Origin: Pirellulales bacterium
Lineage (GTDB): Bacteria; Planctomycetota; Planctomycetia; Pirellulales; PALSA-1355
NCBI GenBank assembly: GCA_040877415.1
Contig: JBBDNV010000128.1
Location: forward strand, 14,953 to 78,952
Direction of reading: 5' to 3'
Length of the DNA stretch: 64,000 nt
A program made the position numbers and the translations under genes. Each line of letters opens with the position of its first letter. The first letter of the stretch is position 1. This document shows positions 2,059 through 16,321 of the stretch, piece after piece. The notes under the pieces are model-generated. The model did not search any database, was not told where the DNA came from, and saw only the letters and a list, made by a program, of their open reading frames with translations.

Positions 2059-3444
2059 ATGCCCGCCCAACCTCAGCATGCCCCAGCAGTCTCAACTGGC
2101 CGCGTCAACCGCCGCCAACTGCTGCGCGCCGGCGGCCTCGGCTTTCTGGGCCTCAACCTGGCACATTTGTTCGAGGCCGAAGCGCGGGCCGGCATGATCG
2201 GCGGCGCCGCGCTGGCGAAGAACCCGATCGAGTCGTGCATCTTGATGTTCTACTACGGCGGGCCGAGTCATCACGACACGTGGGACATGAAGCCACTGGC
2301 GCCGGCCGAAGTGCGGGGCGAATTCAAACCGATCGCCACCAGCGTGCCCGGCGTGCGCATCAGCGAACATCTGCCGCGGTCGTCACAGATCGTCGATCGC
2401 CTGGCCGTCGTTCGCGGCATGCACCACACGATGAGCAACCACAATGCGGCGGCCGTCGAGGCGCTGTGCGGCCGCACGCCGCTGAAGGGCGATCTCGAGC
2501 TATTGTCCAACGACCCGACGACCGACTTTCCGTGTTACGGCTCGGCGCTGACCTATTTGAAAGGCGGCACGCCGTCGGTCCCGCCGCACGTGGCGTTGCC
2601 GCACGTGATGTACAACGTTGTCAAACTCCCCGGGCAGACGGCCGGTTTCCTGGGCGCCGCCTATGAGCCGCTGCAAGTGACCAAGGACCCCAACGCGCCC
2701 GATTTCCGCGTCGCCGAAATCGAGCTGCCCTCCGGCCTCTCGCTGGGGGAATTGGAGAACCGCCGGGCCCTGCTGTCGCGCATCAACGCCCGGATGCCGG
2801 ACGACAGGGCGCAGGGCAACATGAACGCCTTTTACCGGCGGGCGTTCGACCTGTTGCGCTCCGACGCCGTGCGGCGGGCCTTCGACATCGGCCGGGAAAA
2901 CGTCCGTACGCGCGAGCGCTATGGCCGCAACATCCACGGGCAAAGCGCGCTCTTGGCCCGGCGACTAGTCGAATCCGGCGTCCGGTTCGTCAGCATATTC
3001 GACCGCGTGCGCAACGGGCCGAACAACTGGGACACCCACGACAACAACTTCGGACGCCTGAAAGACGATTTGCTGCCGCCGTGCGACACGGCCTTTTCGG
3101 CGCTTGTCGAAGATCTCGAGGCCCGCGGGCTGCTGGATTCGACGCTCGTCGTCATGCTGGGCGAATTCGGCCGCACGCCCAAGATCAACGGCGCGGGCGG
3201 CCGCGATCACTGGCCCAACTGTTATAGCGTCGTACTGGCAGGGGGCGGAATCGCGGGCGGGACGATGTACGGCGCCAGCGACAAATTGGGCGCTTACCCC
3301 GAAACCAATCCGGTCACCCCGGGCGATCTGGCCGCCACTATTTTCTGGCGATTCGGGCTCGATCCGGCCACCGAATTGCACGATCCGGCCGGCCGGCCAT
3401 TCCGCCTGGCGGTCGGCGAGCCGATTCACGGGCTGTTCGGCTAG
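2059..3444 (+). CDS. DUF1501 family protein (sulfatase-like fold) with a twin-arginine signal
   Basis: An internal ATG at 2059 gives MPAQPQHAPAVSTGRVNRRQLLRAGGLGFLGLNLA, with an RR motif and a hydrophobic stretch. The body matches DUF1501 (GGPSHHDTWDMKP, GEFGRTP, GRDHW). The ORF-track start at 1807 is a TTG extension. Confidence 0.85.
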   Translation: MPAQPQHAPAVSTGRVNRRQLLRAGGLGFLGLNLAHLFEAEARAGMIGGAALAKNPIESCILMFYYGGPSHHDTWDMKPLAPAEVRGEFKPIATSVPGVRISEHLPRSSQIVDRLAVVRGMHHTMSNHNAAAVEALCGRTPLKGDLELLSNDPTTDFPCYGSALTYLKGGTPSVPPHVALPHVMYNVVKLPGQTAGFLGAAYEPLQVTKDPNAPDFRVAEIELPSGLSLGELENRRALLSRINARMPDDRAQGNMNAFYRRAFDLLRSDAVRRAFDIGRENVRTRERYGRNIHGQSALLARRLVESGVRFVSIFDRVRNGPNNWDTHDNNFGRLKDDLLPPCDTAFSALVEDLEARGLLDSTLVVMLGEFGRTPKINGAGGRDHWPNCYSVVLAGGGIAGGTMYGASDKLGAYPETNPVTPGDLAATIFWRFGLDPATELHDPAGRPFRLAVGEPIHGLFG

Positions 3445-3504
3445 CGCCGCAAAGACACCAGCCCGAAGCGGCAGTTCTAACAACTTTTTTGAAGGAGCTT
3501 TTAT

Positions 3505-4185
3505 ATGTTTCGCCCTTGGTTGGTGGCCGGCTCGGCGGTGGCTCTGGCCGTCTCGGTGGCTGCTTCGGCACAAGCGCAGTTTCCGCGCGGGATGCGCTTT
3601 CCCGCGTCGTTGCAGGACGTCTTCATGCTGCGCAACGAAGCCGTGCGAAAGGAGCTCAACGTCAACGACGAGCAGCAGGCGGTGCTTGCCAGTCTGGCGG
3701 CAAAGTTGCAGCAGGACGCCTTCGAGATCATTTCCGGATTGCAGGATCTCACGCCCGAGGAGCAAAAGGAGGCGATGGCCGACGTGATGAAGATGGTCGC
3801 CGAAAAGGGCAAGGAAGTGAAGCAACAGGTCGATGGGATCCTGGACAAAACGCAAATCGAGCGGTTCAAAGAGCTGTCGCTCCAGTCCCGGGGCGCACAG
3901 GCGCTCGAGGACGACGAAATGGTCGCCGCTCTCGAAATCACCGACGAGCAAAAGAAGCAATTGGCCGGCATCCGCGAAGACGGTATGCAGGCCGTCCAGG
4001 AGGCGTTTCAAAAATTGCGGGGCGGCGGCAGCGACCAGGGAGACATCCGCAAGAAGATAATGGAAATGCGCAACCGGTTGTCCGACAAAGCCTTAACGGT
4101 GCTCACTCCCGAACAGCGCGAGCAATTCGAGAAAATGAAGGGAGCTAAATTCGACTTTCCGGCTGGACGTGGCTTCCCTTTTTAG
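3505..4185 (+). CDS. Secreted LTXXQ-motif (Spy/CpxP-like) periplasmic protein
   Basis: There is a strong SD (GAAGGAG) 7 nt upstream and a signal peptide MFRPWLVAGSAVALAVSVAASAQA. LTPEEQ and LTPEQREQFEKM motifs sit within a charged helical sequence. Confidence 0.6.
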   Translation: MFRPWLVAGSAVALAVSVAASAQAQFPRGMRFPASLQDVFMLRNEAVRKELNVNDEQQAVLASLAAKLQQDAFEIISGLQDLTPEEQKEAMADVMKMVAEKGKEVKQQVDGILDKTQIERFKELSLQSRGAQALEDDEMVAALEITDEQKKQLAGIREDGMQAVQEAFQKLRGGGSDQGDIRKKIMEMRNRLSDKALTVLTPEQREQFEKMKGAKFDFPAGRGFPF

Positions 4186-4315
4186 AACCGATATTCTATT
4201 TTACGAAACACGCCACTTGCCACTCGGGTAGTATTGATATCCCGCGCTACCCGACTCTCATGCACAAAGGGATTCCAGCGCACGTTCACTCGAGTAGATT
4301 AACCGAGGTGTTAAG

Positions 4316-6133
4316 ATGGGCAAATTTCGGCATCTAGCATTGATTGCGGCGATTGTCGGCTGCGCTTCGATCTCGATCGCTGCCGACTCTCCGATCGGCA
4401 AGAAGATCGACAGTTTTTCGCTGCCCGATTTTCACGGCAACAAGCATTCGCTGAACGACTACGAGGGAAAGCCGGTGGTCATAGCGTTTGTCGGCACCGA
4501 ATGTCCCCTGGCGAAGAACTACGCGCCGCGGCTCACGAGCCTGGCGGCCGAATTCTCGGAAAAGGGCGTGGCCTTCCTGGCCGTTAACGCCAATGTGCAG
4601 GATTCCCTGATCGAGGTCGGCAACTATGCCCGGGACTACAAGATCCCCTTCCCGCTGCTGAAGGACAACAACAACGTCGTGGCCGACACGATGGGCGCGG
4701 TGCGCACTCCGGAAGTCTTTCTATTGGACAAGGACCGGGTGGTGCGCTACTGGGGCCGCATTGACGATCAATACGGCTTCAAAACCGGCGCCGGCTACGT
4801 CAAGCCCAAGCTGAAAGAACGGTACCTCGCTGACGCCATCACCGAGGTGCTCGCCGGCAAGGAAGTCAGCCGGCCGGAGGTCGCGTCGGTGGGCTGTTTC
4901 ATCGGCCGCGCCACAAAGACCGAGCCCAAGGGCGAGGTGACCTACTCCAACCAAATCGCCCGCATCATCCAGAACAACTGCGTGGAATGTCACCGCGCGG
5001 GCGAAGTCGCTCCGTTTACGCTTCTGTCGTACGACGACGTGTCGGCCTGGGCCGATACGATTCGCGAAGTGGTCAGCGAGGGACGCATGCCCCCCTGGTT
5101 TGCCGATCCGCGCTTCGGCCACTTTATCAACGACGCCCGGCTGAGCGATGAGGACAAACAGCAGATTTTCGCCTGGATCGACAACGGCTGCCCGGAGGGC
5201 GATCCGAAAGATCTGCCCGAGCCGCGCAAATTCGTCGAAGGCTGGCAGATCGGCAAGCCCGACCAGATCGTCTACATGCGCGACGAACCCTTCGCGGTTC
5301 CGGCCGAAGGGGTGGTCGACTATCAGTACTTTTCGGTCGATCCGGGCTGGACCGAAGACAAGTGGATTGCTGCCACGGAATGCCGCCCCGGCAATCGTTC
5401 GGTGGTGCACCACATCATCGCGTTTTTGCAGCCGCCCGGTGACAAGGACGTGGGAGATCGCGGTGGGATCGGCGGTTATGCCCCGGGCATGACGCCCAAC
5501 GTTCCCCCGCCCGGCACGGCGATCTTCGTGCCGGCCGGCTCGAAGCTGGTCTTCCAGTTGCACTACACGCCCAACGGCGTCGAGCAGACCGATCGCAGCA
5601 TGGTCGGCATCAAGTTCGCCGATCGCAAGACGGTCAAGCAAATCGTCCGCGGCGGCCTGGTGGGCGACACCGGCTTCCGGATTCCGGCGGGCGACGCGAA
5701 CTACGAAGTCACGGCCCGGCACTTGTTCCTCAAAGACACGCTGCTGTTGAACCTGACGCCCCACATGCACCTGCGCGGCAAGGATTTCAAGTTCGAAGCC
5801 GAGTATCCCGACGGTAGGCGCGAAGTGCTGCTCGACGTGCCGAAGTACGACTTCAACTGGCAGCTTCGCTACATGCTGGTCGAGCCGAAGCTGATGCCCA
5901 AGGGCACCCGGTTGCACTGCACGGCCCACTTCGACAATTCGGCCGACAACCAGGCCAATCCCGATCCCACCGACACGGTCACCTTCGGCGATCAGACGTG
6001 GAACGAGATGATGTTCGGGTTTTACAGTTCGATCGATCCCAAGCAGGATCTGACCCAGGGCCTGGCCGACCGCGGCTCGGGTGACGACAAGGTTGCCGGC
6101 CAGACCGCGACCGAAACGACCGCCAAGAACTGA
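4316..6133 (+). CDS. Secreted three-domain protein: redoxin/AhpC-TSA thioredoxin fold, c-type cytochrome (CxxCH), and a PHM/DBH-like copper type II monooxygenase domain
   Basis: RBS GAGGTG and a signal peptide are present. The N-terminal domain has the redoxin signature VVIAFVGTECPLAKNY...FLLDKDRVV. The heme motif is CVECH. The C-terminal domain carries the histidines HH (NRSVVHHIIAF), H (QLHYTPNG), HxH (TPHMHLRGK) and Met (NEMMFGF), with spacing like the CuH/CuM sites of peptidylglycine monooxygenase. Confidence 0.7.
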   Translation: MGKFRHLALIAAIVGCASISIAADSPIGKKIDSFSLPDFHGNKHSLNDYEGKPVVIAFVGTECPLAKNYAPRLTSLAAEFSEKGVAFLAVNANVQDSLIEVGNYARDYKIPFPLLKDNNNVVADTMGAVRTPEVFLLDKDRVVRYWGRIDDQYGFKTGAGYVKPKLKERYLADAITEVLAGKEVSRPEVASVGCFIGRATKTEPKGEVTYSNQIARIIQNNCVECHRAGEVAPFTLLSYDDVSAWADTIREVVSEGRMPPWFADPRFGHFINDARLSDEDKQQIFAWIDNGCPEGDPKDLPEPRKFVEGWQIGKPDQIVYMRDEPFAVPAEGVVDYQYFSVDPGWTEDKWIAATECRPGNRSVVHHIIAFLQPPGDKDVGDRGGIGGYAPGMTPNVPPPGTAIFVPAGSKLVFQLHYTPNGVEQTDRSMVGIKFADRKTVKQIVRGGLVGDTGFRIPAGDANYEVTARHLFLKDTLLLNLTPHMHLRGKDFKFEAEYPDGRREVLLDVPKYDFNWQLRYMLVEPKLMPKGTRLHCTAHFDNSADNQANPDPTDTVTFGDQTWNEMMFGFYSSIDPKQDLTQGLADRGSGDDKVAGQTATETTAKN

Positions 6134-6152
6134 TCGCTAGGGGGCAAGGTGA

Positions 6153-6200
6153 TCGTTCTTACGAGAGAGGCCGTCCGGGATTTCGGGCGGCCTCTCTCTT
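6153..6200 (+). terminator. Rho-independent terminator after the redoxin/cyt c/monooxygenase gene
   Basis: GC-rich hairpin gagagaggccg-tccgggatttcggg-cggcctctctc followed by ttttgcgcttt. Confidence 0.6.
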
Positions 6201-6323
6201 TTGCGCTTTCGGAGTCGCAGCTTCGCTTGACCTCCCGAGCGGGGATTTGTGTTGACTTTTCGCCCAAAATAGGGGCACAATAGCCTTCGGCGACTACTGG
6301 AACACGGAATGGAGGCTGGGGAC

Positions 6324-8222
6324 ATGCGATCTATCATGCGCGCTGTTGCCGTCTTCGCTTGCGTCGCCGTGAGTTTTCTTTACGGCCCCCCACTCGCTCG
6401 CGCCACAGAACCCACGTCCGCCGACACGCCCGAACAATTGGTGCGTGCGGCTCTCGAGTCGGAAGTTACAGGCGCCTCCGACGAGCGAGCGCGACTGCTG
6501 GCCGAAGCCCTTGCGCGCGATCCCAACTTCGCGCCGGCCCGCTGGCACTCGGGCTTCGTGCGCATCGGCGACGAGTGGATCCAGATCGACGACGTGCCCG
6601 GCCGCGTCGGCAACGACCCGCCACTGGCCGTCTATCGCCAGAAGCGCGACGCGCTGGTGGACACGGCCGACAATCACCGCGAGCTGGCCCGCTGGTGCCG
6701 CAAGAACCGCTTGAACGACGAAGAGCGCGTTCATTGGGCGAAGGTGCTGGAGTTCAACTCACAAGACGCCGAGGCACTTGCGGCGCTCGGATTGCAACTG
6801 TACGAAGGCCGCTTGATGACTCGGGCGCAGATTGAGAAGGCAAAGGTCGCGGCCGGCGAGCGGATGCGCGCCATGCGCAAGTGGCAGCCGCAACTGCTCA
6901 AGTGGCGCGCGGCCATCGAGCGCGGCGTTCCGAAGCGATTGGACGAGGCGCTGCGCGGCCTGAACGAACTGTCAGATCCCGAAGCCCTCGGGGCCTTGGA
7001 AACTGTGTTCGGCATGAGCGCCGACTCAGAAAGAACCAATCGGTTGAATTTGCTGTTGATTGAAGTTGCCGATCGGATTCACCACCCCGAGACAACGCAG
7101 GTGTTGTTGCGCCGGGCGGTCAATGCCGATTCGACGGACGTGCGTCTGGCAGCGTGCGAGGCGCTCAAAAGGCGACCGATGCACGCCTACGTGCCGCTGT
7201 TGATCGAGGCCATGCCCGGCTCGCTGTCGACGAAATTTCACATTTACACGCTGCCCAACGGCACCGTGATGCACGAGCACGAAATCCAGCTCAAGAACCG
7301 GCAAGGCACGGTTTCGATCACGTATGACTGGACGATTCATCCGACTGATCTGAGAGTGGCATCGGCCATTACTCCGCTGGCACTGGCCGGCGAATTGAAC
7401 AAGGCCGCGTCCATTGAAGCCGCTGCCCAAACCAGCGAGCAGCCGAATGGGCGGCTGCGCGAGCGGCTGCAATTCGTGCTGAAGTACACGACCGGTTTCG
7501 AAAGCGCCGACGACCCCGAGCTATGGCTCCGCCAATACAGCGAATACTACGGCTGGGGCATGCCCGATCAAGCGAAGAAAGACGTGCGCGTGTATGCCTG
7601 GCAATACGAAACTTATTTTCCGCTGCGGTCGCCCGAGGAGCAATCCAGCTCCAGCGGAACAGGGTTGACGGTCGCCCCGCGCAGCGAAAGTCCTCTGACG
7701 AGTCCCGGCTCTCGGCCCGTGTTTACGGCAATCTCGGGACCTGCGCTTACGCTTCGCGGCGAGTGCTTTCCGGCCGGAACGACCGTGCTGTCAATCAGCG
7801 GTCCGAAACCGATTGAGACCCTAAAGCCGGGCGATCGTGTACTGGCGCAGGATATCGCCACCGGCGAGCTCGCCTATAAGACCGTGCAACAGCGTACGCT
7901 GCGCCGCAGCGTCAAGCTCATGAATATCCGCTGCGGTCCGCGGACGATTTCCGCGACCCCAGGACATCCGTTTTGGGTCGTTGGCCACGGCTGGCAAGTG
8001 GCAAAACACCTCCAGATCGGCGCGCGTTTGCGCGGACTCGAGGAGGACACGGTGGTCGACAAGATCGAAGAACTTCCACCGCAGGAGGTTTACAACCTGA
8101 TCGTCAGCGACTTTGCCACCTTTTTTGTTGGCCCCCAGCGGCTGTTCGTGCACGACGATTCGCTGTTGAGTGAAACTTCGGTCCTGGTGCCGGGGCTCGC
8201 CGTGCAAACCGAGGCTCCTTGA
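6324..8222 (+). CDS. Secreted HEAT/PBS-lyase-like repeat protein with a C-terminal Hint (bacterial intein-like, BIL) domain
   Basis: A second ATG at 6324 has GGAGG 8 nt upstream. The signal peptide is MRSIMRAVAVFACVAVSFLYGPPLARA. The C-terminal roughly 150 aa start at Cys (GECFPAGTTVLSISGPKPIETLKPGDRVLA) and end with the Hint block VYNLIVSDFATFFVGPQRLFVHDDS. Confidence 0.7.
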   Translation: MRSIMRAVAVFACVAVSFLYGPPLARATEPTSADTPEQLVRAALESEVTGASDERARLLAEALARDPNFAPARWHSGFVRIGDEWIQIDDVPGRVGNDPPLAVYRQKRDALVDTADNHRELARWCRKNRLNDEERVHWAKVLEFNSQDAEALAALGLQLYEGRLMTRAQIEKAKVAAGERMRAMRKWQPQLLKWRAAIERGVPKRLDEALRGLNELSDPEALGALETVFGMSADSERTNRLNLLLIEVADRIHHPETTQVLLRRAVNADSTDVRLAACEALKRRPMHAYVPLLIEAMPGSLSTKFHIYTLPNGTVMHEHEIQLKNRQGTVSITYDWTIHPTDLRVASAITPLALAGELNKAASIEAAAQTSEQPNGRLRERLQFVLKYTTGFESADDPELWLRQYSEYYGWGMPDQAKKDVRVYAWQYETYFPLRSPEEQSSSSGTGLTVAPRSESPLTSPGSRPVFTAISGPALTLRGECFPAGTTVLSISGPKPIETLKPGDRVLAQDIATGELAYKTVQQRTLRRSVKLMNIRCGPRTISATPGHPFWVVGHGWQVAKHLQIGARLRGLEEDTVVDKIEELPPQEVYNLIVSDFATFFVGPQRLFVHDDSLLSETSVLVPGLAVQTEAP

Positions 8223-8239
8223 AACCGGCCCGCGATTCC

Positions 8240-9472
8240 ATGATCTTCTTCCGGGCATGCGTCGTCGCTGTAATCGTCTCGCTGGCCGCCGTTGCGCGGG
8301 CCGGACAGGGCGACGCGAGGGATGGCGCGGCGCGGCTGCTGGAGATGGCCGAAAAGAACACGCCGCCGGCCGTCGCCGCGGCCCGCGCCCGGTACGAACA
8401 GCTTAAGAAGGCAAATCCCGACGACGCGCGGATCGACTACGTTTACGGCGTCGCGCTGGTGAACCAGCACCTCTACGGCGAAGCGCTGCCGCTTGTGGCG
8501 CGATACCTGGCCCGCCACGCGGACGACGGCAACGCTATCCGCACGAAGATCTGGATCGAGCTTCACGATCGCCAATATGCGCCGGCCCTCAAAGACGCCG
8601 TCAGCCTGAGCCGGCTATTTCCCAAACGTTCCGGCGCGAAGCCGAATCCCGATTTCGAAGAGGCCGCGCGTTTCCTGGGAGCGGTTTTCGGCTACCTGGA
8701 GCTGGCCAGGCCCGAAGCCGTCGACGAGAAGCTCCGCGCGGCGGGCAAGAACCAGGTGTTGTCGGCGCTCGGCGATGCGTATCTGAGCCCGTTCGAAGAG
8801 GGGCGCCAAAAGGTCTCCGGCCGGCTGGCCGAGCTCGACAAAGAGCAAAAGGAGAAGCAAGACCAGGCGGCCGAGACGCTTGACGAGCGCCAAGGCAAAG
8901 TGAAAGAGGCGATTGCCGACGATCAACAGAAAATCGCCGCGGGCACTGAGACCATCCAGGCCAGCGCCGAGCAACTGCGCGACGCCCAGCGGCAGTTCGC
9001 CGTGCTGAGCACGCAGCTAAATTCGCTCGAAAAGGATCGCGCTCGATTGAGTGCGCAAATCGTGACGGTCCAAACACAACTGCTCGATCTTCAGAAGGAC
9101 GTCAAGCTCGATGCCAAACGCAGCCCGACCGTTTCCATCGACACGGCCGCGAAACTCGCGCAACTGAGCGTGATACTGGCCGGCCTCGACCGACAAGCTT
9201 TCGCGATGGACGAGAAGATCCTCGCCCTGCGGACTCAAGCGACCCAATTGGGCGCCAAGGGCAACAAGGAATCGCAAACGCTGGCCGCAAACCGGGCCGC
9301 GGTCGGGCAGGTCGAGCGGCGCGCCAAGGCGCTGGAAAACCAGGTCCGCCGGCTCGAGGCCAAACGGCCCGTGCGCCGCGCGCCGACGGCCGAAATGAAG
9401 AAGTTTTCCACCTACCTGTCCTTCCCGTTCGAGGAAGAGAAACAGCGCGTCCTCGGCTGGTTCGAAGAGTAG
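8240..9472 (+). CDS. Secreted or membrane-anchored coiled-coil protein with an N-terminal TPR-like segment
   Basis: The ATG at 8240 gives MIFFRACVVAVIVSLAAVARA. The track start TTG 8219 overlaps the upstream stop. A long heptad-like Q/E/K/A/L-rich region follows (LDKEQKEKQDQAAETLDERQGKVKEAIADDQQKIAAG...). It is translationally coupled to the upstream Hint gene. Confidence 0.55.
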   Translation: MIFFRACVVAVIVSLAAVARAGQGDARDGAARLLEMAEKNTPPAVAAARARYEQLKKANPDDARIDYVYGVALVNQHLYGEALPLVARYLARHADDGNAIRTKIWIELHDRQYAPALKDAVSLSRLFPKRSGAKPNPDFEEAARFLGAVFGYLELARPEAVDEKLRAAGKNQVLSALGDAYLSPFEEGRQKVSGRLAELDKEQKEKQDQAAETLDERQGKVKEAIADDQQKIAAGTETIQASAEQLRDAQRQFAVLSTQLNSLEKDRARLSAQIVTVQTQLLDLQKDVKLDAKRSPTVSIDTAAKLAQLSVILAGLDRQAFAMDEKILALRTQATQLGAKGNKESQTLAANRAAVGQVERRAKALENQVRRLEAKRPVRRAPTAEMKKFSTYLSFPFEEEKQRVLGWFEE

Positions 9473-9655
9473 CGATCTGTCGTTTGTGCTAAACCGCATG
9501 CGCGGCGGTGAGCCGCGGCGTTTGCTCACGCCGGCGGCGCGTGTTGCTTGCTCCGGTGGGGCGGGGTACAGTCAAGGTTTCGGTTGTCACGAGCGGGAAA
9601 CTCCCGCGCCGAAGTGAATCTTGTTACCGATTTGCCCAGCCTCGCCGTACGCTCG

Positions 9656-11551
9656 ATGCCGCCCAGCCGTGCCGTTGGAATCGATTTGGGGACGACCCGC
9701 GCCGCCCTGGCTCGCATCGACGAGCCGGCCCGAAGCGCGATGATTCGCGACGCCCAGGGCGACCTGTTGATTCCCAGCGTCGTATTCTTCGAAGACGACG
9801 AGCTGGTTTGCGGCCGCGCCGCCAAACTGGCCGCGGTCGCGCGGCCGGACCGGGCGGCGGAGTTCTTCAAACGCGATTTGGGCCAGGCCGCGTACTCTCG
9901 GGCCATCGGCGGCGAGCTGCTGTCGGCCGAGCTGATCGAAGCCTGCCTGCTCAAAAAGCTCGAAGCCGAGTTGGCCGACCAGGGCATTGCAAAACCGGCC
10001 GTCGCGCTCTCCATGCCCGCCAGCTTCAATCAAGCACAGCGCCGGGCCCGGCTCGATGCCGCCAAGATCGCGCGCGTCGAGCTGTTGGGCACGATCAACG
10101 ACCCGCTGGCCGCGGCCCTGAGCTACGCCGAAAGCCAGGGCTATTTGCACCCATCGACGCCCGACAAGCCGGGCTGCCGCGTGCTGGTATTCGACCTGGG
10201 CGGCGGCAAGCTGGACGTGGCCATCGTGGAAATCAAGCCGGGCCGGCTGCGCACCATGGCCGTCGGCGGCAACGCGAAGCTGGGTGGCCGCGATTGGGAC
10301 CTCCGGCTCGCCGAACATCTGGCCGAGCAGTTTGCCAAGGAATTCGGCCAGGATCCGCGCCACGACATGACCAGCGTGCGGCGGCTGTTGGAAAGCGCCG
10401 AAGAAGCCAAACAATCGCTCTCGGCCCGGCAACAGGCGCGCGTGCAGGTCGAGCGCGGCAAGAGCGCGGCCGCCATCGTCGTCACGCGGCAGGCCTTCGA
10501 GGAGATGACCGCCGACTTGCTCGACGAGGCTGCCGCGATCACCGAAGGCATCGTGGCCCGGGCCGGAATGGCCTGGCGCGACGTGTCCGGGTTGCTGTTG
10601 GTCGGAGCCGCCACGCGGATGCCGATCGTGGCCAAACGGCTCGAAGAGCTGACCGGGCTGGTGCCGGCTGCCGCCGTCCATGCCGACGAAGCCGTGGCTC
10701 GCGGCGCGGCACTGTATGCCGAATGTCTGCTCGCGGCGCGCGAAGGCCGCCAAACGGACCTGCACGTGGCGATCACCGACCTGACGGTCCATAGCCTGGG
10801 CTTGGAGTGGAATGACCCGCGCACCGGACGCGTCGAAAACGTGGTCTTGATCGCGCGCGGCTCGGAGCTGCCGTGCGGCACCGTCGCCGCAGCCACGACC
10901 GACACGGCCGGCCAGTCGTCCCTGGTGATTCAACTCTTGGAGGGCGAAAGCCGCGCCGCCGACCAGTGCGCGCGAATCGCGCTGTTGACGGTCCGCGATC
11001 TGCCCGACGGGCTGCCCAAGGGAACTCAGATCGACGTGCACTATCAATTCACCGCCGAGGGCCGGCTGCAAGTGAGAGCCCGGCTGCCGCGGAGCGGACA
11101 ATCGCTGCCGATCAGCGTGCGGCGCGAACAGGGCTTGACCGAAAGCCAGATTTCCGATTGGCAACAGCTCATCGCGCGCGGCCAGGGGCTGCGGGCCATC
11201 CACGCGCTGTTGCCCGAGCACCGGCGACAGCGCGAGGCCCTGGCGGCGGCTCAGCCCCCTGGGCCGCGCGCGGCGAGCTCGGCCGGGCCGCCGGCCTTGC
11301 CGAACGAGACGCCCGCCGACGAGGAATTTACTCTGGAGACCGGCAGCGACGCGACCGCCCGGCGCCTGAAGAAACGCAGAATGACGCCGCGCCGATTGGC
11401 CATCATGCTCGGCGGATACGTCGTCTCCGCCTTGGTCGGCACGGCCATAGGCTACTATATATTGATGAGGATCGATCCCAGCTACAACTGGTGGCACCTG
11501 CGGCTGCCCGGGCTGCGCGACGCGCCGGCCTCGAGCGCCGACGTTCATTGA
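9656..11551 (+). CDS. Hsp70-family (DnaK-like) ATPase with a divergent C-terminal region and a C-terminal transmembrane anchor
   Basis: The ATG at 9656 gives MPPSRAVGIDLGTT (phosphate-1 motif). It also has DLGGGKLDVAIV (phosphate-2) and GAATRMPIV (adenosine motif). The C-terminal hydrophobic helix is LAIMLGGYVVSALVGTAIGYYILM. The track ORF start at 9548 is an upstream extension. Confidence 0.75.
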   Translation: MPPSRAVGIDLGTTRAALARIDEPARSAMIRDAQGDLLIPSVVFFEDDELVCGRAAKLAAVARPDRAAEFFKRDLGQAAYSRAIGGELLSAELIEACLLKKLEAELADQGIAKPAVALSMPASFNQAQRRARLDAAKIARVELLGTINDPLAAALSYAESQGYLHPSTPDKPGCRVLVFDLGGGKLDVAIVEIKPGRLRTMAVGGNAKLGGRDWDLRLAEHLAEQFAKEFGQDPRHDMTSVRRLLESAEEAKQSLSARQQARVQVERGKSAAAIVVTRQAFEEMTADLLDEAAAITEGIVARAGMAWRDVSGLLLVGAATRMPIVAKRLEELTGLVPAAAVHADEAVARGAALYAECLLAAREGRQTDLHVAITDLTVHSLGLEWNDPRTGRVENVVLIARGSELPCGTVAAATTDTAGQSSLVIQLLEGESRAADQCARIALLTVRDLPDGLPKGTQIDVHYQFTAEGRLQVRARLPRSGQSLPISVRREQGLTESQISDWQQLIARGQGLRAIHALLPEHRRQREALAAAQPPGPRAASSAGPPALPNETPADEEFTLETGSDATARRLKKRRMTPRRLAIMLGGYVVSALVGTAIGYYILMRIDPSYNWWHLRLPGLRDAPASSADVH

Positions 11552-11594
11552 CCCGCGCAAGCTCTCAAGCGCCAAGGCCCTTCGTTGGACCGAT

Positions 11595-13187
11595 ATGACG
11601 AACGAATCACCGCCCGCGGTCGGAATTGATCTGGGCACCACCTATACGGCCGTGGCGTATATCGACGATACGGGCAGGCCGATTACGCTGGTGAACGCCG
11701 AAGGCGACCTGGTGACGCCCAGCGCGGTATTGTTCGAGGGCGATACGGCGATCGTGGGCAAGGAGGCGCTCAAGGCGATTGCCACGGAAGCGGATCACGT
11801 GGCGCAATGCGCGAAGCGCGAGTTGGGCGAGCGGGCATTCCACAAAGTATTCGACGGCCGCCGCTTTCCGCCCGAGGCTCTGGAAGCGTTCATTCTCAAC
11901 AAGGTGCGTCAGGACGCCATCCGCCACATCGGCGACTTCCGCAAAGTGGTGATCACCGTGCCGGCCTATTTCGATGAAGTGCGCCGCAAGGCCACGCAAG
12001 ACGCGGGGCACATGGCCGGCTTCGAAGTGCTCGACATCATCAACGAGCCGACTGCCGCGGCCATTGCCCACGGCTTTTTGAAAGGATTTCTCAACCGCGA
12101 CGGCGCCGCCAACGAGCCGCGCAAGCTGCTGGTCTACGACCTGGGCGGCGGCACGTTCGACGTGACGGTGATGGAGATTCGCGGGCACGACTTTGCGGCC
12201 TTGGCCACCGACGGCGATGTGCAGCTCGGCGGCCAGGACTGGGATCAAAGGCTCGTGGACTACGTGGCCGAGGAGTTCAAGCTGACCTACAAGCTCGACC
12301 CGCGCGAGGAGTCCAATACGGCCGGCCGGCTGTGGCGCGAATGCGAAGACGCCAAGCGCACGCTGTCGGCCCGCAGCAAGGTGTCGATCAGTTGCGATTA
12401 CAGGAGCCAGGCGCTGCGCGTCGAGGTGACGCGCGAAAAATTCGAGGAAATCACCCAGGATCTGCTGGACCGCACGAGATTCACCACCAGGCAGACGCTG
12501 CAGGCGGCCGGGATGACCTGGTCCGATCTGGACTACGTGCTGATGGTCGGCGGCTCCACGCGCATGCCGATGGTTGCCCGAATGCTCCGCGAGCTGACGC
12601 GCAAGGAGCCCGATGCGTCGGTCTCGGTCGACGAAGCCGTGGCTCACGGCGCGGCGCTGCACGCCGCGATCATCCTGGCCCGCACGCGCGGCGAAACTCC
12701 CGTCCTGAACATCAAGAACGTCAATTCGCACAGCCTGGGCGTGGTGGCCAGCGATCCGCGCACCGATCGCCGCCGCAACGCCATCCTGATTCCGCGCAAC
12801 ACTACGCTGCCGGTGACCGCCAAGCGCGTGTTTCGCACGCAGAAGGCCAACCAGAAATCGATTCTCGTGCAGATCGTCGAAGGCGAGAGCGCCTCTCCCG
12901 AGGATTGCTCGCAAATCGGCAAGTGCGTGGTCCGCGATCTCCCGCCCGACCTGCCGGCCCAGACGCCGATCGAAGTCTGGTTCGAGTATCAGGAGAACGG
13001 CCGCTTGAACGTGCGCGTGATCGTCGCCGGCACGGGCCGCGAGCTCCAGCACGAGATCGCGCGCGAGAACAGCATGACGACCGAACAGCTCGACGCCTGG
13101 CGTCTGTTTATCGGCGGCCAGTCGATGATCAGCCACTCGCAACTTCAACCCGACGACGATGATCTGACGATCGTCGACGAGCTGTAG
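11595..13187 (+). CDS. Hsp70-family ATPase paralog (short, about 530 aa, lid-less)
   Basis: It carries VGIDLGTTYTAVAY, NEPTAAAIAHGF, YDLGGGTFDV and VGGSTRMPMV. It starts 43 nt after the previous Hsp70-like gene. Its antisense shadow is the 945-aa ORF 11607..14444. Confidence 0.8.
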   Translation: MTNESPPAVGIDLGTTYTAVAYIDDTGRPITLVNAEGDLVTPSAVLFEGDTAIVGKEALKAIATEADHVAQCAKRELGERAFHKVFDGRRFPPEALEAFILNKVRQDAIRHIGDFRKVVITVPAYFDEVRRKATQDAGHMAGFEVLDIINEPTAAAIAHGFLKGFLNRDGAANEPRKLLVYDLGGGTFDVTVMEIRGHDFAALATDGDVQLGGQDWDQRLVDYVAEEFKLTYKLDPREESNTAGRLWRECEDAKRTLSARSKVSISCDYRSQALRVEVTREKFEEITQDLLDRTRFTTRQTLQAAGMTWSDLDYVLMVGGSTRMPMVARMLRELTRKEPDASVSVDEAVAHGAALHAAIILARTRGETPVLNIKNVNSHSLGVVASDPRTDRRRNAILIPRNTTLPVTAKRVFRTQKANQKSILVQIVEGESASPEDCSQIGKCVVRDLPPDLPAQTPIEVWFEYQENGRLNVRVIVAGTGRELQHEIARENSMTTEQLDAWRLFIGGQSMISHSQLQPDDDDLTIVDEL

Positions 13188-13283
13188 GCGGGCCCACGGC
13201 ACCGGGCGCGATTGCACCTGCCGGCTGGGGCGATTTATACTAACCGGGTCGCTGCGTGCTCGTTCCGCCAGGGAATTCCCTCC

Positions 13284-16280
13284 ATGAAAATCTTTCCCCG
13301 CGGCACCGCGATCGCCGCATGGGGCTTTTGCGTGCTGGCGGCGTGGGCCGCGCCCGCTTGCGCCCAATTGCCGCCGGATAAAGAGCTGGCGACGCTGCGT
13401 GCCGCGCCCCAGTTCGAGGTCTCGCTGTTTGCGTCCGAGCCCCTGATCACCAACCCCGCGGCCATCGACGTCGATACGCAGGGCCGCTTGTGGGTGGCTG
13501 AAATCCAGTGGTATCGCGGAGCCGCCAAGAGCCTGCCCGCCGACAAGATCAAGGTGCTGGAAGATACCGACGGCGACGGCGTGGCCGACAAAGCCACCGT
13601 TTTTGCCGACGACGTTTTCGCCCCGATGAGCATTTGCGTGGCCGGCGAGCGGGTGTTCGTCGCCACGAGTCCCGACCTGTGGGTCTATGAAGACAAGAAT
13701 GGCGACCTGGTGGCCGACGGCCCGCCCCAAAAGCTGCTCACCGGCTTCGGCGGCAAGAACCACGATCACGGCGCGCACAGCCTCGTGCTCGGGCCCGACC
13801 ACAAGTGGTGGATGTCGCACGGCGACCGGGGCTTTGACGTCCGTGGCACCGACGGCTCGCGCATCAAGTATCAGTGGGGCGCCGTCGTGCGCGGCGAATT
13901 GGACGGCAGCCGGCTCGAAACCGTGGCGGTCAATTTCCGCAATCCGTACGAAGTCTGCGTCAGCTCGTTCGGCGAAGCATTCGTAAGCGACAACGACAAC
14001 GACGGCAACGAAAGCGTGCGCATCTGCTGGATTCTCGAAGGGGGCAACTACGGCTGGTTCGGCGGCCCGCCGTTTGGAAAGCAAGAACTCGACGATCAAC
14101 TCCCCGCCGATACGCCGTTCCGCCGGCATTGGCACTTCCGCGGCCACGTGCCGGGCTTCGTGCCGGCCACGCTGGTCACCGGCTTCGGCTCGCCCTCGGG
14201 CATATGCTTTTACGAGAGCGACGCCTTTGGGCCGAAGTACAAAAACGTTCCGCTGCACGCCGACGCCGGCCCGCGCGAATGTCGCGTCTATCGCCACGAG
14301 CCGGCCGGCTTCGGCATGAAAGCCACGAGCGAAATATTCCTCGGCAACCAGGGGGACGATTACTTTCGACCCGACGACGTTTGCGCGGCGCCCGACGGAC
14401 GGCTGTACGTCGCCGACTGGTACGACGGCGGAGTCGGCGGACACGCTTACAACAATCCCGACCAGGGCCGCATCTTCGTGCTTGCGCCCAAGGGGAAAAA
14501 ACTTTCACGCCGCGAAAAACCGGGGCCGTACGCAAGCATCGCCGATGCCGTCGAAGGCCTCAAAAGCCCCAACCTGGCCACGCAATATCTCGCCCGCGAG
14601 CGGCTGCTGGCCGAAGGTCCTGCGAGCGTGCCGGCACTCGGCGAATTGTTGGCCGGCCCCGAACCGAACCATCGGGCCCGGGCCTTGTGGCTGCTGGACC
14701 GCATCGGGGACGGCGCGCGCGAATCGGTCGAGAGGCAACTAAAATCTCCGGAACCGGCGTTTCGCGCATTGGCGGTGCGCATCTTGCGCCGACACGGAAA
14801 CCAGCACGGCGATGCAATCCTGGCACTGGCCGGTGACTCGTCAGACGAAGTGCGCCGCGAAGTACTGTTGGCCACGCGCTGGCTCGACGGCGAGAAGGCC
14901 GAAGCGGCGCTGGCCCAATTCGCCGCCGACTACGACGGGACCGACCGTTATCTGCTGGAAGCCGTCAACATTGCCGCGGGCGATCGCCGCGAAGCGCTCC
15001 TGGCCCGATTGGAAGCACAAGGCCCGCTGTCGATCGAGCAATTTCCGCTGTTGCAACTGCTCAGTCCTAAGCGGGCGGCCGCCCAACTGGTCGATCGGCT
15101 CCGAGCGGACCATCTCGACGAAAAGACGGCCCGCGCGCTCATCGAAACCGCGGTGAACATTCCGGCGCCCGAGGTCGGCTGGGGTCTGTTGAAGCTGGCC
15201 GAGAATCGGGAACTTTCGGCCGCGCTGCGCCGCGCGGCGCTCGGCAAGGTGGCCGCGGGCGCCAGCCGCGGCGGCGTTTGGGGAGCCATGTCGCGCGATC
15301 CAAAGCTCACGGCCGCGCTAGGTGCCCTATTGGCCGACGACGAGCTGCGCACCACGGCATTGGCAGCCGTGGACGCGCTGCGATTGCGGAAGCTCTGCGA
15401 CAACGTGCTGGCGATCGCGCGCTCGGCCAATCTCGACCCGGCCCAGCGCGAACAAGCCATCGACGTGGCCGCGAACCTCAAGCCCTCGGGCATCGCGCCG
15501 GCCTTGCGCGAGCTTTTGTCCGATCCCGAGCCGGCGGTTTCCGGCGCCGCCTTGCGACGGCTGGTCGATTTGCAAGACATCAAGAGCTTGCGCGAAATAC
15601 TGGCAAGCGACAAATTCTCCGCCGACGCGCGCCGGCGAGCCGTTGACCAGGCCGTCGAAACCACGGCCGGAGCGATCCTGCTCGTGCGGCTGATCGACGA
15701 AGACCGCCTTTCGGACGAATTGAAACGAGCCGTGTTGACCAAGGCCGCCTCGCACGCCGATTCGAACGTCCGCGGGCTGTACGAAAAATTCATCCCCGAA
15801 GACCAGCGGTCGAAGAAACTGGGCAGCGCCATTTCGGCCGACGAGATCCTGGCCCTTGCGGGCGACGCGAACCGCGGGCGGCTGATCTTCTACCAGAGCT
15901 CGGCTGCGGGGTGCCAGCAGTGTCACGCCGTGCAGGGGTTCGGCGGAACGACCGGGCCCGAGCTATCGAATATCGGCAAGAAGTACGAACGAGGGGCGCT
16001 GTTGGAGACCATTCTCGATCCGTCCAAGGCCATCGCCCCGGAATACATACCGTACTTGCTCGAAACGAAAGGCGGCCAGGTGTACGCCGGCTTTCTGGTG
16101 GAGCGCCGGGACGACCGGGTCGTGCTGCGGGACGTCAAGAACAAGACCTGGCGCGTGGCGACCGACGAGGTCGAAGCCCTCGTTGGGCAGCAAAAATCGC
16201 TGATGCCGGAGTTGATATTAAGCGAAGTGACAGCACAGGACGCGGCAGACCTCTTGGCATTTCTCGCAAGCCTCAAGTAA
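13284..16280 (+). CDS. PVC-type membrane-bound dehydrogenase domain / HEAT repeat / c-type cytochrome (CxxCH) protein
   Basis: The ATG at 13284 gives the signal peptide MKIFPRGTAIAAWGFCVLAAWAAPACA. A beta-propeller-like N-terminus (LWVAEIQWY, DTDGDGVADK) is followed by HEAT-like repeats. The C-terminal heme motif is CQQCHAVQGFGGTTGPEL. Confidence 0.8.
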   Translation: MKIFPRGTAIAAWGFCVLAAWAAPACAQLPPDKELATLRAAPQFEVSLFASEPLITNPAAIDVDTQGRLWVAEIQWYRGAAKSLPADKIKVLEDTDGDGVADKATVFADDVFAPMSICVAGERVFVATSPDLWVYEDKNGDLVADGPPQKLLTGFGGKNHDHGAHSLVLGPDHKWWMSHGDRGFDVRGTDGSRIKYQWGAVVRGELDGSRLETVAVNFRNPYEVCVSSFGEAFVSDNDNDGNESVRICWILEGGNYGWFGGPPFGKQELDDQLPADTPFRRHWHFRGHVPGFVPATLVTGFGSPSGICFYESDAFGPKYKNVPLHADAGPRECRVYRHEPAGFGMKATSEIFLGNQGDDYFRPDDVCAAPDGRLYVADWYDGGVGGHAYNNPDQGRIFVLAPKGKKLSRREKPGPYASIADAVEGLKSPNLATQYLARERLLAEGPASVPALGELLAGPEPNHRARALWLLDRIGDGARESVERQLKSPEPAFRALAVRILRRHGNQHGDAILALAGDSSDEVRREVLLATRWLDGEKAEAALAQFAADYDGTDRYLLEAVNIAAGDRREALLARLEAQGPLSIEQFPLLQLLSPKRAAAQLVDRLRADHLDEKTARALIETAVNIPAPEVGWGLLKLAENRELSAALRRAALGKVAAGASRGGVWGAMSRDPKLTAALGALLADDELRTTALAAVDALRLRKLCDNVLAIARSANLDPAQREQAIDVAANLKPSGIAPALRELLSDPEPAVSGAALRRLVDLQDIKSLREILASDKFSADARRRAVDQAVETTAGAILLVRLIDEDRLSDELKRAVLTKAASHADSNVRGLYEKFIPEDQRSKKLGSAISADEILALAGDANRGRLIFYQSSAAGCQQCHAVQGFGGTTGPELSNIGKKYERGALLETILDPSKAIAPEYIPYLLETKGGQVYAGFLVERRDDRVVLRDVKNKTWRVATDEVEALVGQQKSLMPELILSEVTAQDAADLLAFLASLK

Positions 16281-16321
16281 ACTTCCCACCCGAGGCCCTC
16301 CTGTTCCAAGGTAACCCGATC

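Follow-up and report, generated by a model that had tools for sequence, protein, structure and literature searches.

The four co-oriented genes analysed here probably constitute two separate two-gene modules, each conserved independently of the other and found side by side in only one sub-lineage of Pirellulales. One module encodes an exported protein with a C-terminal Hint domain (Hint) and an exported coiled-coil protein (CC), the other a membrane-anchored Hsp70 (Hsp70TM) and a short soluble Hsp70 (Hsp70s). An earlier note on the window, that is, the whole 64-kb stretch of DNA, had joined them in a single system, a proposal that we do not uphold since all four genes are syntenic in one sub-lineage only. 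Conserved gene order in one lineage can mimic an operon, and an unsupported "four-gene machine" is removed from consideration.

Organization and boundaries of the genes

All four ORFs were confirmed, each on the forward strand: Hint at 6324..8222 (ORF 6309/6324-8222, with 632 aa from the ATG at 6324), CC at 8219..9472 (417 aa), Hsp70TM at 9656..11551 (ORF 9548/9656-11551, with 631 aa from the ATG at 9656, a start that agrees with that in orthologues) and Hsp70s at 11595..13187 (530 aa). The 632-aa Hint product is identical to a protein of an NCBI Pirellulales MAG (P0001). The tight packing that had been claimed for all four genes holds within the pairs and not between them. The start of CC overlaps the Hint stop, as had been noted, by 4 nt at a TTG codon, with an ATG of CC 18 nt further on, and 43 nt separate Hsp70TM from Hsp70s, whereas 183 nt lie between CC and Hsp70TM. 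The downstream gap, previously put at roughly 100 nt, measures about 96 nt from Hsp70s to the next gene. An Rfam search of positions 3000-17000 gave no matches, and the window is free of tRNAs.

An intrinsic terminator on the forward strand at 6163..6203, that of the upstream AhpC/redoxin-cytochrome c gene, bounds the Hint-CC unit on its 5' side. As the earlier note had it, there is a terminator upstream of the cluster, consisting of a hairpin with 16 bp and no mismatch and then UUUU; it was missed by a consensus scanner, found by eye and confirmed by RNA folding (dG -33.4 kcal/mol, z -4.7, 0/200 shuffles as stable). A consensus scan also gave, as a pattern match only, a sigma-70-like promoter candidate for Hint-CC at 6252..6281 on the forward strand (TTGACT-18-CACAAT). 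The upstream neighbours encode envelope proteins, a LTXXQ/CpxP-like protein and a periplasmic redoxin.

The Hsp70 pair has a promoter-like element of its own at 9544..9583 on the forward strand, in which TTGCTT and a 17-nt spacer are followed by TACAGTCAAGGTTTCGG. In 11 loci this element could be aligned upstream of Hsp70TM with its spacing unchanged, both after CC and after unrelated genes, giving the consensus TTGCyN-17 nt-TAsAGTCAAGGTTT. The sequence GKTANAGTCARSGWTT occurs once in the 64-kb window, against 0.02 expected occurrences, and in a set of 91 loci it is found only in the 11 with Hsp70TM, once in each. The 183-nt CC-Hsp70 gap folds no more stably than shuffled sequence (z -1.4) and contains no clear terminator, and transcription may read through from CC into the Hsp70 genes. 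The pair's own cis-element argues for a separate transcription unit.

Conservation of the two gene pairs

We surveyed synteny by tblastn in 88 loci, 21 of them close-clade Hint loci, with genes in the fetched loci called by a home-made GC3 heuristic. The Hsp70 pair lies 199-263 nt downstream of Hint-CC in 7 of these 21 loci. Downstream sequence is readable in 17 distinct close-clade Hint loci. The Hsp70 pair is adjacent in seven of them (six if L006 and L090 represent one organism) and absent in the other ten, each of which has at least 2 kb of sequence downstream. The four-gene arrangement is confined to the window and to L006/L090, L009, L013, L017, L019 and L091. None of the 61 distant Hint loci, 47 of which have at least 4 kb of downstream sequence, has an adjacent Hsp70; the sole distant locus with any Hsp70, L062, carries it 9.5 kb away on the opposite strand. 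Conversely, six loci of the Hsp70TM type (L081-L083 and L087-L089), whose Hsp70 pair is orthologous or related to that of the window, are without Hint-CC, and each has the second, short Hsp70. Two of the surveyed loci, L081 and L004, are on the same 230-kb contig, where about 24 kb separate one module from the other. In the sub-lineage that shows adjacency the entire nine-gene region is syntenic, and the adjacency is therefore explained by descent.

Each pair is by itself more constant. In the close clade CC adjoins Hint in all loci except L015 and L016, the latter on a contig that ends at the Hint gene, and may stand either after or before the Hint gene or genes, which are often present as two or three tandem copies with paralogues at only 40-50% identity. 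CC is also found beside Hint in five distant loci; next to most distant Hint genes a CC HMM detected no partner, and clustering of the distant neighbourhoods revealed no other universal neighbour. Wherever the anchored Hsp70 was examined, Hsp70s came immediately after it. The earlier note had considered that the Hsp70 genes might belong to a generic planctomycete expansion with random neighbours. Hsp70TM does belong to such a family, widespread in planctomycetes, whose members are anchored at the C-terminus and differ in their neighbours; it is always paired with a short Hsp70. The genes also differ in divergence, identity to orthologues being 40-53% for Hint, 30-48% for CC, 62-73% for Hsp70TM and about 80-86% for Hsp70s.

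The Hint protein and its coiled-coil partner

The Hint protein starts with a putative signal peptide (roughly residues 1-27) and an N-domain of helical repeats (roughly 36-440). A linker that is disordered and hypervariable (445-480) adjoins the predicted cleavage site, the Hint domain reaches from C481 (codon 7764-7766) as far as H610-D611 (8151-8156), and a tail of 21 residues follows. The Hint/BIL domain proposed from the sequence at the C-terminus was strongly confirmed by the profile search that might have failed it, the Pfam PT-HINT match (residues 493-610 of the 637-aa ORF) scoring 64.2 bits against a cut-off of 27.7. The domain has the HINT fold, the N-terminal Cys nucleophile and the block-B Thr-x-x-His of BIL/PT-HINT domains (PF07591), and matches the Clostridium thermocellum BIL domain (PDB 2LWY) with a phmmer E-value of 8.6e-19. 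Across 41 homologues there is no variation at C481 or H548, conservation of T545 is at least 90% and 39 keep His610. The position aligned to the terminal Asn of 2LWY is Asp611, an Asp in 40 of the 41, and the residue that follows is Asn in 28 of them and Asp in the window protein. The tail is conserved in the family, including the motif VPGL, and packs partly as a strand on the Hint domain.

The N-domain, which is the conserved part of the protein, is an alpha-solenoid in the AF2 model. Structure searches with it returned generic HEAT/TPR repeats only, and HEAT_2 in Pfam stays below its cut-off (22.2 vs 27.7). The family is large: clustering at 50% identity gives 2,151 clusters, and the full-length matches are almost without exception 570-650 aa long. 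This is, then, a large and uncharacterised planctomycete family with an exported solenoid cargo and a terminal, Hedgehog-like BIL domain, on which we found nothing specific in the literature.

The signal peptides suggested earlier for both proteins of this module agree with hydropathy, in which the only hydrophobic segment of either protein is N-terminal and precedes ARA|T or ARA|G. That CC is a coiled-coil protein was likewise borne out, by weak Pfam matches to coiled coils, accompanied by equally weak matches to TPRs, and by an AF2 model (pLDDT 86.8, built from 16 database homologues) with TPR-like helices at 49-184 and an antiparallel helix hairpin at 186-293 / 307-381. Foldseek gave generic TPR matches only. 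The C-terminal motif LSTYxPFPYEEExxRVLGWF is conserved. We suggest that CC is translationally coupled to the Hint gene and exported, and that this TPR/coiled-coil protein may bind one of the Hint cleavage products, as a partner or as a scaffold.

Possible reactions of the Hint domain

After export of the Hint protein, presumably by Sec, Cys481 would make an N-to-S acyl shift, helped by the block-B Thr-x-x-His, and the thioester would be resolved through hydrolysis or transfer to another nucleophile. Cleavage would free a solenoid of about 50 kDa from a Hint domain of about 17 kDa. BIL domains mainly give cleaved products, and the Hh-C domain carries out the N-S acyl shift only (PMC7664689). 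Because Asp occupies the position of the terminal Asn and a mere 21 residues follow, Hedgehog-type N-terminal cleavage, and not toxin release, is expected to be the main reaction. The change from Asn to Asp could also mean that the C-terminal step is altered or inactive.

The domain shares with BIL/PT-HINT domains (PF07591; 2LWY) the Cys at position 1, the block-B T-x-x-H and the penultimate His, as well as its place within a secreted protein beside a variable region. It differs from them in lying at the extreme C-terminus, since a BIL domain usually precedes a toxin or variable C-terminal domain, and in the near-invariant Asp at the terminal Asn position. With Hedgehog/Hog proteins (PDB 1AT0) it has in common the signal peptide, the N-terminal cargo and a terminal Hint domain with predicted X-Cys cleavage, and the expected chemistry is also the same, an N-S acyl shift alone with release of the N-terminal product. 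The window protein, in contrast, has no sterol- or adduct-recognition region, only the 21-residue tail, its alpha-solenoid cargo is unrelated to Hh-N, and by sequence its Hint domain is nearer to BIL than to Hog domains.

A bolder suggestion, to which we give little credence, is that the terminal BIL is a bacterial Hedgehog-type ligase. The Cys481 thioester would then escape hydrolysis and react with a defined nucleophile, for instance in a lipid of the envelope, in a stem peptide of peptidoglycan or in CC, so that the solenoid becomes covalently anchored in the envelope, and linker and tandem paralogues would provide differently tethered scaffolds. That the thioester passes to any acceptor, a lipid included, is pure conjecture; if true, it would amount to a widespread, unrecognised protein-anchoring chemistry in Planctomycetota, with about 2,150 sequence clusters. 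More generally, this family, with its terminal Asn replaced by Asp, could show the use of Hint chemistry by bacteria outside toxins and inteins.

The Hsp70 pair

The earlier description of two divergent Hsp70s, one with a C-terminal TM helix in place of the lid and one of about 530 aa, is supported throughout. The Pfam HSP70 profile (PF00012) matches Hsp70TM with 282 bits and Hsp70s with 399 bits, and both matches end at profile position 509/599, indicating that the helical lid is missing in both proteins. Hsp70TM, in which the match covers profile positions 1-509 of 599, has an NBD, an SBD-beta and a low-complexity linker; hydropathy places a C-terminal TM helix at residues 581-603 (11396-11464, forward strand), beyond which an extracytoplasmic stub is conserved (RIDPSYNWWHLRLPGLR). 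Hsp70s has no TM segment by hydropathy. The ATPase motifs are diverged in Hsp70TM (INDPLAAA, DLGGGKLD) and canonical in Hsp70s (NEPTAAA, DLGGGTFD). That neither is a housekeeping DnaK also proved correct: they score 271 and 383 bits with the DnaK equivalogs NF001413 and TIGR02350, against a cut-off of 648, and the full SBD-alpha lid is absent. The best NCBIfam matches of Hsp70TM are DnaK/HscA models, and it is below all of their cut-offs.

We picture Hsp70TM as lying in the cytoplasm, fixed to the inner membrane by its C-terminal TM helix, where it may recruit or regulate the active, soluble Hsp70s, the two making up a dedicated membrane-proximal chaperone pair; the clients of such a pair we can only infer. 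Hsp110 acting on Hsp70 and Ssz1 in the ribosome-associated complex are atypical or regulatory Hsp70 partners in eukaryotes. They resemble the present case in that a paralogue with diverged motifs is paired with a canonical one, a likeness of analogy alone, heterodimerization here being something that we infer. A tail-anchored lid-less Hsp70 with a soluble lid-less paralogue would be a bacterial Hsp70 specialisation at the membrane, with diverged motifs in the clade of the window, and such pairs make up a second uncharacterised planctomycete family; a search for literature on tail-anchored bacterial Hsp70s found nothing specific.

Alternative interpretations

It could be argued that the Hsp70 genes encode chaperones of the HscC type whose partners, as in E. 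coli, are J-proteins anchored in the membrane. Both window Hsp70s have HscC-like indels, a deletion of the DnaK 76-101 region and an insertion of 4-5 residues in the SBD-beta loop L1,2, and these correspond to the NBD lobe-I deletion and L1,2 insertion described for HscC, although the lobe-I deletion is also seen in many non-proteobacterial DnaKs (PMC8215388). The E. coli partner DjlC is itself tail-anchored, which by analogy would make HscC/DjlC membrane-proximal, and a specialised, non-housekeeping Hsp70 at the inner membrane is common to both cases. Orthology to HscC was considered for these common indels and rejected on identity (25-31% to HscC, below the 33-37% to DnaK) and on the position of the window Hsp70s in an NJ distance tree, where they do not group with HscC; the best NCBIfam matches, to DnaK/HscA, are all far below cut-off. 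Unlike in E. coli, the window Hsp70 itself is anchored, there are two tandem paralogues and the lid is wholly absent. Moreover, tblastn with E. coli DnaJ, DjlC and HscB, a search less sensitive than one with profiles, found no J-domain gene in the 64-kb window or in any locus. We therefore consider the HscC reading unlikely. Hsp70-based conflict systems were also considered, in which Hsp70 is linked to DO- or GAP1-N2-type GTPases, tubulin, GrpE or DnaJ-fused components (Kaur et al. 2020, PMC7159879), and were set aside, none of these partners appearing in the Pfam-annotated contexts.

Two further readings involve the Hint-CC pair, and we regard both as very improbable. According to one, the pair acts in conflict, as a polymorphic toxin or otherwise; PT-HINT would free an effector, and an arms race would lie behind the fast divergence of the tandem copies. 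The model that scores best in Pfam is indeed a "pretoxin" HINT, the NCBI name is "polymorphic toxin-type HINT domain-containing protein", a second PDB relative, 8W20, is an "intein C-terminal splicing domain-containing protein" (1,368 aa, E 2e-9), and the divergent tandem paralogues and the hypervariable segment beside the cleavage site are such as an arms race might leave. However, the toxin domain expected C-terminal to PT-HINT is absent, its place being taken by the conserved tail; Pfam and structure searches found no RHS, filamentous or PAAR-type delivery domains, Pfam giving Hint-type matches alone apart from the sub-threshold HEAT; it is the N-domain that is conserved; and the adjacent CC, an exported coiled-coil protein of 417 aa, does not resemble a small immunity protein of the cytoplasm. 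The conflict role that the earlier note had also entertained gains nothing from PADLOC, which returned weak HEAT-repeat and coiled-coil (JetC) matches, none for the Hsp70s and no convincing defence model for the four proteins. According to the other reading the four genes form one dedicated envelope machine, in which the anchored Hsp70 pair aids export, folding or sorting of Hint and CC from the cytoplasm. In favour of it are the common orientation and the adjacency of the genes, seen in the window and 6-7 related loci, the conserved stub with which Hsp70TM could contact periplasmic proteins, and the envelope proteins that the upstream neighbours encode as well. Against this, each pair occurs without the other in most loci examined, in one genome at a distance of 24 kb, the Hsp70 pair keeps the same upstream element whatever its neighbour, and descent accounts for the adjacency. 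Within the favoured interpretation of two modules, the linkage in the sub-lineage of the window may nevertheless bring some functional benefit, since adjacency has persisted while Hsp70TM fell to 62% identity.

Gene organization

The best-supported interpretation of this region is that it comprises two independent modules, a Hint-domain gene (6324-8222) with a coiled-coil gene (CC, 8219-9472), and a membrane-anchored Hsp70 gene (Hsp70TM, 9656-11551) with a short Hsp70 gene (Hsp70s, 11595-13187). The four ORFs all lie on the forward strand. The Hint ORF runs from the ATG at 6324 and encodes 632 aa; its product is 100% identical to a Pirellulales MAG protein named by NCBI "polymorphic toxin-type HINT domain-containing protein". 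The CC ORF begins with a TTG, in a 4-nt overlap with the TGA of the Hint gene, and has an alternative ATG 18 nt further on; the spacing is -4 or +17 nt depending on the start. Gaps of 183 nt, 43 nt and about 96 nt follow the CC, Hsp70TM and Hsp70s genes, respectively; the ATG of Hsp70TM at 9656 was chosen from the N-termini of orthologues. Upstream of the Hint gene there is a hairpin with a U-run (6163-6203, forward strand; perfect 16-bp stem, dG -33.4, z -4.7), and 3' of it a promoter-like site, TTGACT-18-CACAAT, identified by pattern match. The co-oriented genes, upstream terminator and downstream gap described in the earlier note are thus present.

Linkage of the two gene pairs

Homologues of the window genes were located by tblastn in 78 loci around Hint homologues, two more found by protein look-up, and eight around Hsp70TM relatives. 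The Hint loci fall into two sets: 21 with a Hint identity of at least 40%, here called the close clade, and 61 distant ones (26-34%), of which 47 extend 4 kb or more downstream. The close-clade order is an LTXXQ protein, an AhpC/redoxin-cytochrome c protein, one to three Hint genes and CC, and some loci have an extra CC gene before or between the Hint genes. CC adjoins Hint in 19 of the 21 close-clade loci, the exceptions being L015 and L016, the latter on a contig that stops at the Hint gene. In L006, L009, L013, L017, L019, L090 and L091, as in the window, CC has the Hsp70 pair 199-263 nt 3' of it. At ten distinct close-clade loci where 2 kb or more of sequence follows (L001, L002, which equals L007, L003, L004, L008, L010, L012, L014, L015 and L018), unrelated genes are found there instead, in several cases a small ORF, a 380-400-aa ORF on the opposite strand and a PAS histidine kinase gene. 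None of the 61 distant loci has an Hsp70 gene adjacent to Hint; in L062 an Hsp70 gene is 9.5 kb away on the other strand.

The Hsp70 genes were also found together elsewhere. A short Hsp70 of 447-595 aa is encoded directly 3' of the Hsp70TM orthologues at 54-57% identity (L082, L083, L087, L088) and of a 42% relative (L089); in the nanopore assemblies apparent frameshifts divide the gene for this short protein. Upstream of the four orthologues lie GXGXG and NTP_transf_3 genes, never Hint-CC. On one 230-kb contig, which carries both L081 and L004, about 24 kb separates the two modules. Identity to orthologues is 62-86% for the Hsp70 genes and 30-53% for Hint and CC. In the sub-lineage with adjacency, gene order is collinear across the whole region bounded by the LTXXQ gene and the second DUF7133 gene, so that descent suffices to explain why Hint-CC and the Hsp70 genes are neighbours. 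The earlier note had proposed a single four-gene system and gene-neighbourhood conservation as its check. The domain identities stand, but the single system is not supported: the four genes are not generally syntenic, with an adjacent Hsp70 pair at 7 of 21 close and 0 of 61 distant Hint loci, and the pairs occur apart in most loci examined.

The genes flanking the interval also recur. In the window, the gene for an exported CpxP/Spy-like LTXXQ-motif protein (3505-4185, forward) precedes that for an exported fusion of AhpC/redoxin with a haem-binding cytochrome c domain (4316-6133, forward); the N-terminus of the fusion protein (…IVGC…) resembles a lipobox. This pair is 5' of Hint-CC in most close-clade loci, being missing in L001, L005, L012 and L015, and its linkage to Hint-CC is therefore steadier than that of the Hsp70 genes. 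Downstream, two tandem genes (13212/13284-16280 and about 16400-19333, forward) encode paralogous proteins of roughly 1,000 aa that combine DUF7133, HEAT repeats and cytochrome c. Of 13 contexts with the Hsp70 pair, 11 have genes of this family 3' of it, including L082, L083, L087 and L088, which are free of Hint-CC, and this arrangement is probably a conserved gene order.

Across six adjacent and five non-adjacent loci, the aligned 200 nt or so 5' of Hsp70TM share a block of fixed spacing, TTGC(C/T)N, 17 nt, TA(C/G)AGTCAAGGTTTCGG, located in the window at 9544-9583 (forward), about 75 nt 5' of the Hsp70TM ATG. It resembles -35 and -10 boxes with a conserved start region behind them. The 64-kb window has a single copy of the pattern GKTANAGTCARSGWTT (0.02 expected), as does each of 11 Hsp70TM loci, and the pattern is absent elsewhere in the 91 loci. 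L088 has a variant that differs at one base. As the block is kept at both adjacent and non-adjacent loci, the Hsp70 pair has its own conserved upstream signal regardless of the preceding gene. No convincing terminator was found in the CC-Hsp70TM gap, and given this there may be read-through from CC into the Hsp70 genes.

The Hint and coiled-coil proteins

The signal-peptide protein with a C-terminal Hint/bacterial intein-like (BIL) domain proposed earlier was recovered, with a PT-HINT match of 64 bits against a Pfam cut-off of 27.7; its HEAT match is below the Pfam threshold. By hydropathy the sole hydrophobic segments of Hint and CC are N-terminal and signal-peptide-like, ending ARA|T and ARA|G, respectively. 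An AF2 model of Hint built from 41 homologues (pLDDT 88, pTM 0.80) has helical repeats and two beta-hairpins (36-296), a three-stranded sheet and then a long helix (300-390), a disordered stretch (445-477) and a compact beta domain (481-625). Among these homologues C481, within S/E-CFPAGT, and H548 are invariant, T545, which with H548 lies in T-x-G-HPFW, is at least 90% conserved, and H610 is kept in 39. In a phmmer alignment the terminal "VHN" of 2LWY, a Clostridium thermocellum BIL-domain structure, pairs with "VHD"; the position of the intein Asn is Asp in 40 of 41 sequences, followed by Asn (28) or Asp (8) and next by Ser or Thr. There is no toxin domain C-terminal to the Hint domain, only a 21-residue tail that includes a conserved VPGL. 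Conservation is high in the N-domain (41-300) and the Hint domain, and lowest at 441-480, just before the predicted cleavage site.

A search of 1.84 billion representatives with the N-domain alone gave 2,151 clusters at E <=1e-3 and 1,358 at E <=1e-10. Nearly all full-length matches are 570-650 aa long and are matched at residues ~30-440, indicating that a solenoid plus terminal Hint is the family norm. In GTDB genomes, at least 515 loci encode members of the family; they belong to Pirellulales, Thermoguttaceae, Stieleria, Rhodopirellula, Aeoliella, Lacipirellula, Schlesneria and one Phycisphaera MAG, the members in Stieleria, Aeoliella and Rhodopirellula being distant ones. Hint genes occur as two or three tandem paralogues with mutual identity of just 40-50% in L001, L002, L003, L018, L056, L079 and others, and CC is duplicated at some loci (CC-Hint-Hint-CC, Hint-Hint-CC-Hint-CC).

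Pfam TPR and coiled-coil matches to CC are weak. Its AF2 model (pLDDT 86.8) has TPR-like helices at 49-184 and an antiparallel hairpin of a 108-residue and a 75-residue helix, in agreement with the signal-peptide coiled-coil protein, overlapping the Hint stop, that had been reported. In two alignments of homologues (A3, A4) a signal-peptide-like N-terminus, a TPR-like region and a C-terminal motif, LSTYxPFPYEEExxRVLGWF, are shared, while the central coiled coil varies, with indels. Foldseek matched generic peptide-binding TPR domains only (for example PEX5 and MamA), with no fold relatives at E <=1e-3. In the close clade, the TPR/coiled-coil protein is the conserved partner of the Hint protein.

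The Hsp70 pair

Both HSP70 matches (282 bits in Hsp70TM, 399 in Hsp70s) end at position 509 of the 599-position Pfam profile, so that both proteins consist of the NBD and SBD-beta without the helical lid. Both are far below the NCBIfam equivalog cut-offs for DnaK and HscA, and by hydropathy Hsp70TM has a lone C-terminal TM segment (581-603) and the short Hsp70 none, which bears out the two non-canonical Hsp70s, one anchored, of the earlier note. A C-terminal hydrophobic helix with the motif G-[HY]-x-[VI]-x-[SA]-x-x-G-L-x-[IL]-G-Y-[YL] is present in nearly all of the best 120 database relatives of Hsp70TM, so that tail-anchored Hsp70s form a broad planctomycete family. In the orthologue clade of the window protein (at least 54% identity) the short stub after the helix, RIDPSYNWWHLRLPGLR, is also conserved, INDPLAAA replaces NEPTAAA (DnaK E171D, T173L), and DLGGG[K/M/T]LD replaces DLGGGTFD, with Lys at the DnaK T199 position in the window copy. 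Canonical ATPase motifs are retained in ~40%-identical relatives and in the short partner.

Both window Hsp70s share with E. coli HscC a lobe-I deletion and an L1,2 insertion, described as HscC features (PMC8215388). Membership of HscC was rejected, as the two proteins show 25-31% identity with HscC against 33-37% with DnaK and group apart from HscC in a distance tree. In E. coli K-12 (679000-687000) hscC adjoins djlC, which encodes a protein with a hydrophobic tail anchor at its C-terminus, and also Sel1/TPR-repeat genes (ybeT and neighbours), a loose parallel to a membrane Hsp70 near TPR-type proteins. No J-protein gene was found in the window or loci by tblastn with E. coli J-domains.

The Hsp70 genes appear split into two or three ORFs in L081 (10001-13261), L087 (10188-11509) and L091 (10177-11607). 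These are long-read MAG assemblies from one project (samples ERZ250394xx-ERZ250395xx), and the splits are probably indel errors rather than pseudogenes. At its C-terminus the short Hsp70 has an acidic tail, …DDDDLTIVDEL (13140-13187), that is not conserved in the orthologues L082 and L083, making a TPR-binding EEVD-like role unlikely.

Possible functions of the two modules

BIL domains yield mainly cleaved products, and Hh-C is limited to an N-S acyl shift (PMC7664689). By analogy, the exported Hint precursor most likely cleaves itself between residue 480 and Cys481 in BIL/Hedgehog style. This would release an alpha-solenoid carrying a flexible tail, with the thioester either hydrolysed or transferred. 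The second module, from its predicted features, pairs a lid-less Hsp70 tethered to the membrane with a soluble paralogue whose catalytic motifs are canonical, and we infer by analogy that the anchored protein may recruit or regulate the soluble one. The alternative raised earlier, a conflict system, was rejected since the locus has no toxin domain, immunity-like neighbour or convincing PADLOC match. Hsp70-containing conflict systems are known, but they require GTPase, tubulin or GrpE partners (Kaur et al., PMC7159879), which are missing at this locus. What remains are two uncharacterised variants, a family of Hedgehog-like proteins with a terminal BIL domain, and tail-anchored Hsp70 pairs.

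SUKH/SMI1-KNR4 and Imm11-like proteins are typical polymorphic-toxin immunity families. In one genome (L088, 5336-7170, reverse) two SUKH/SMI1-KNR4 genes and an Imm11-like gene separate the GXGXG gene from the Hsp70 pair. Elsewhere in the window, one gene (25546-27960, reverse) encodes a Ser/Thr protein kinase joined to a periplasmic-binding-protein domain (Peripla_BP_5/6), and a 381-aa ORF (24138-25283, reverse), weakly matched by a squalene-hopene-cyclase C-terminal repeat, adjoins this fusion gene and a DUF1501 gene.
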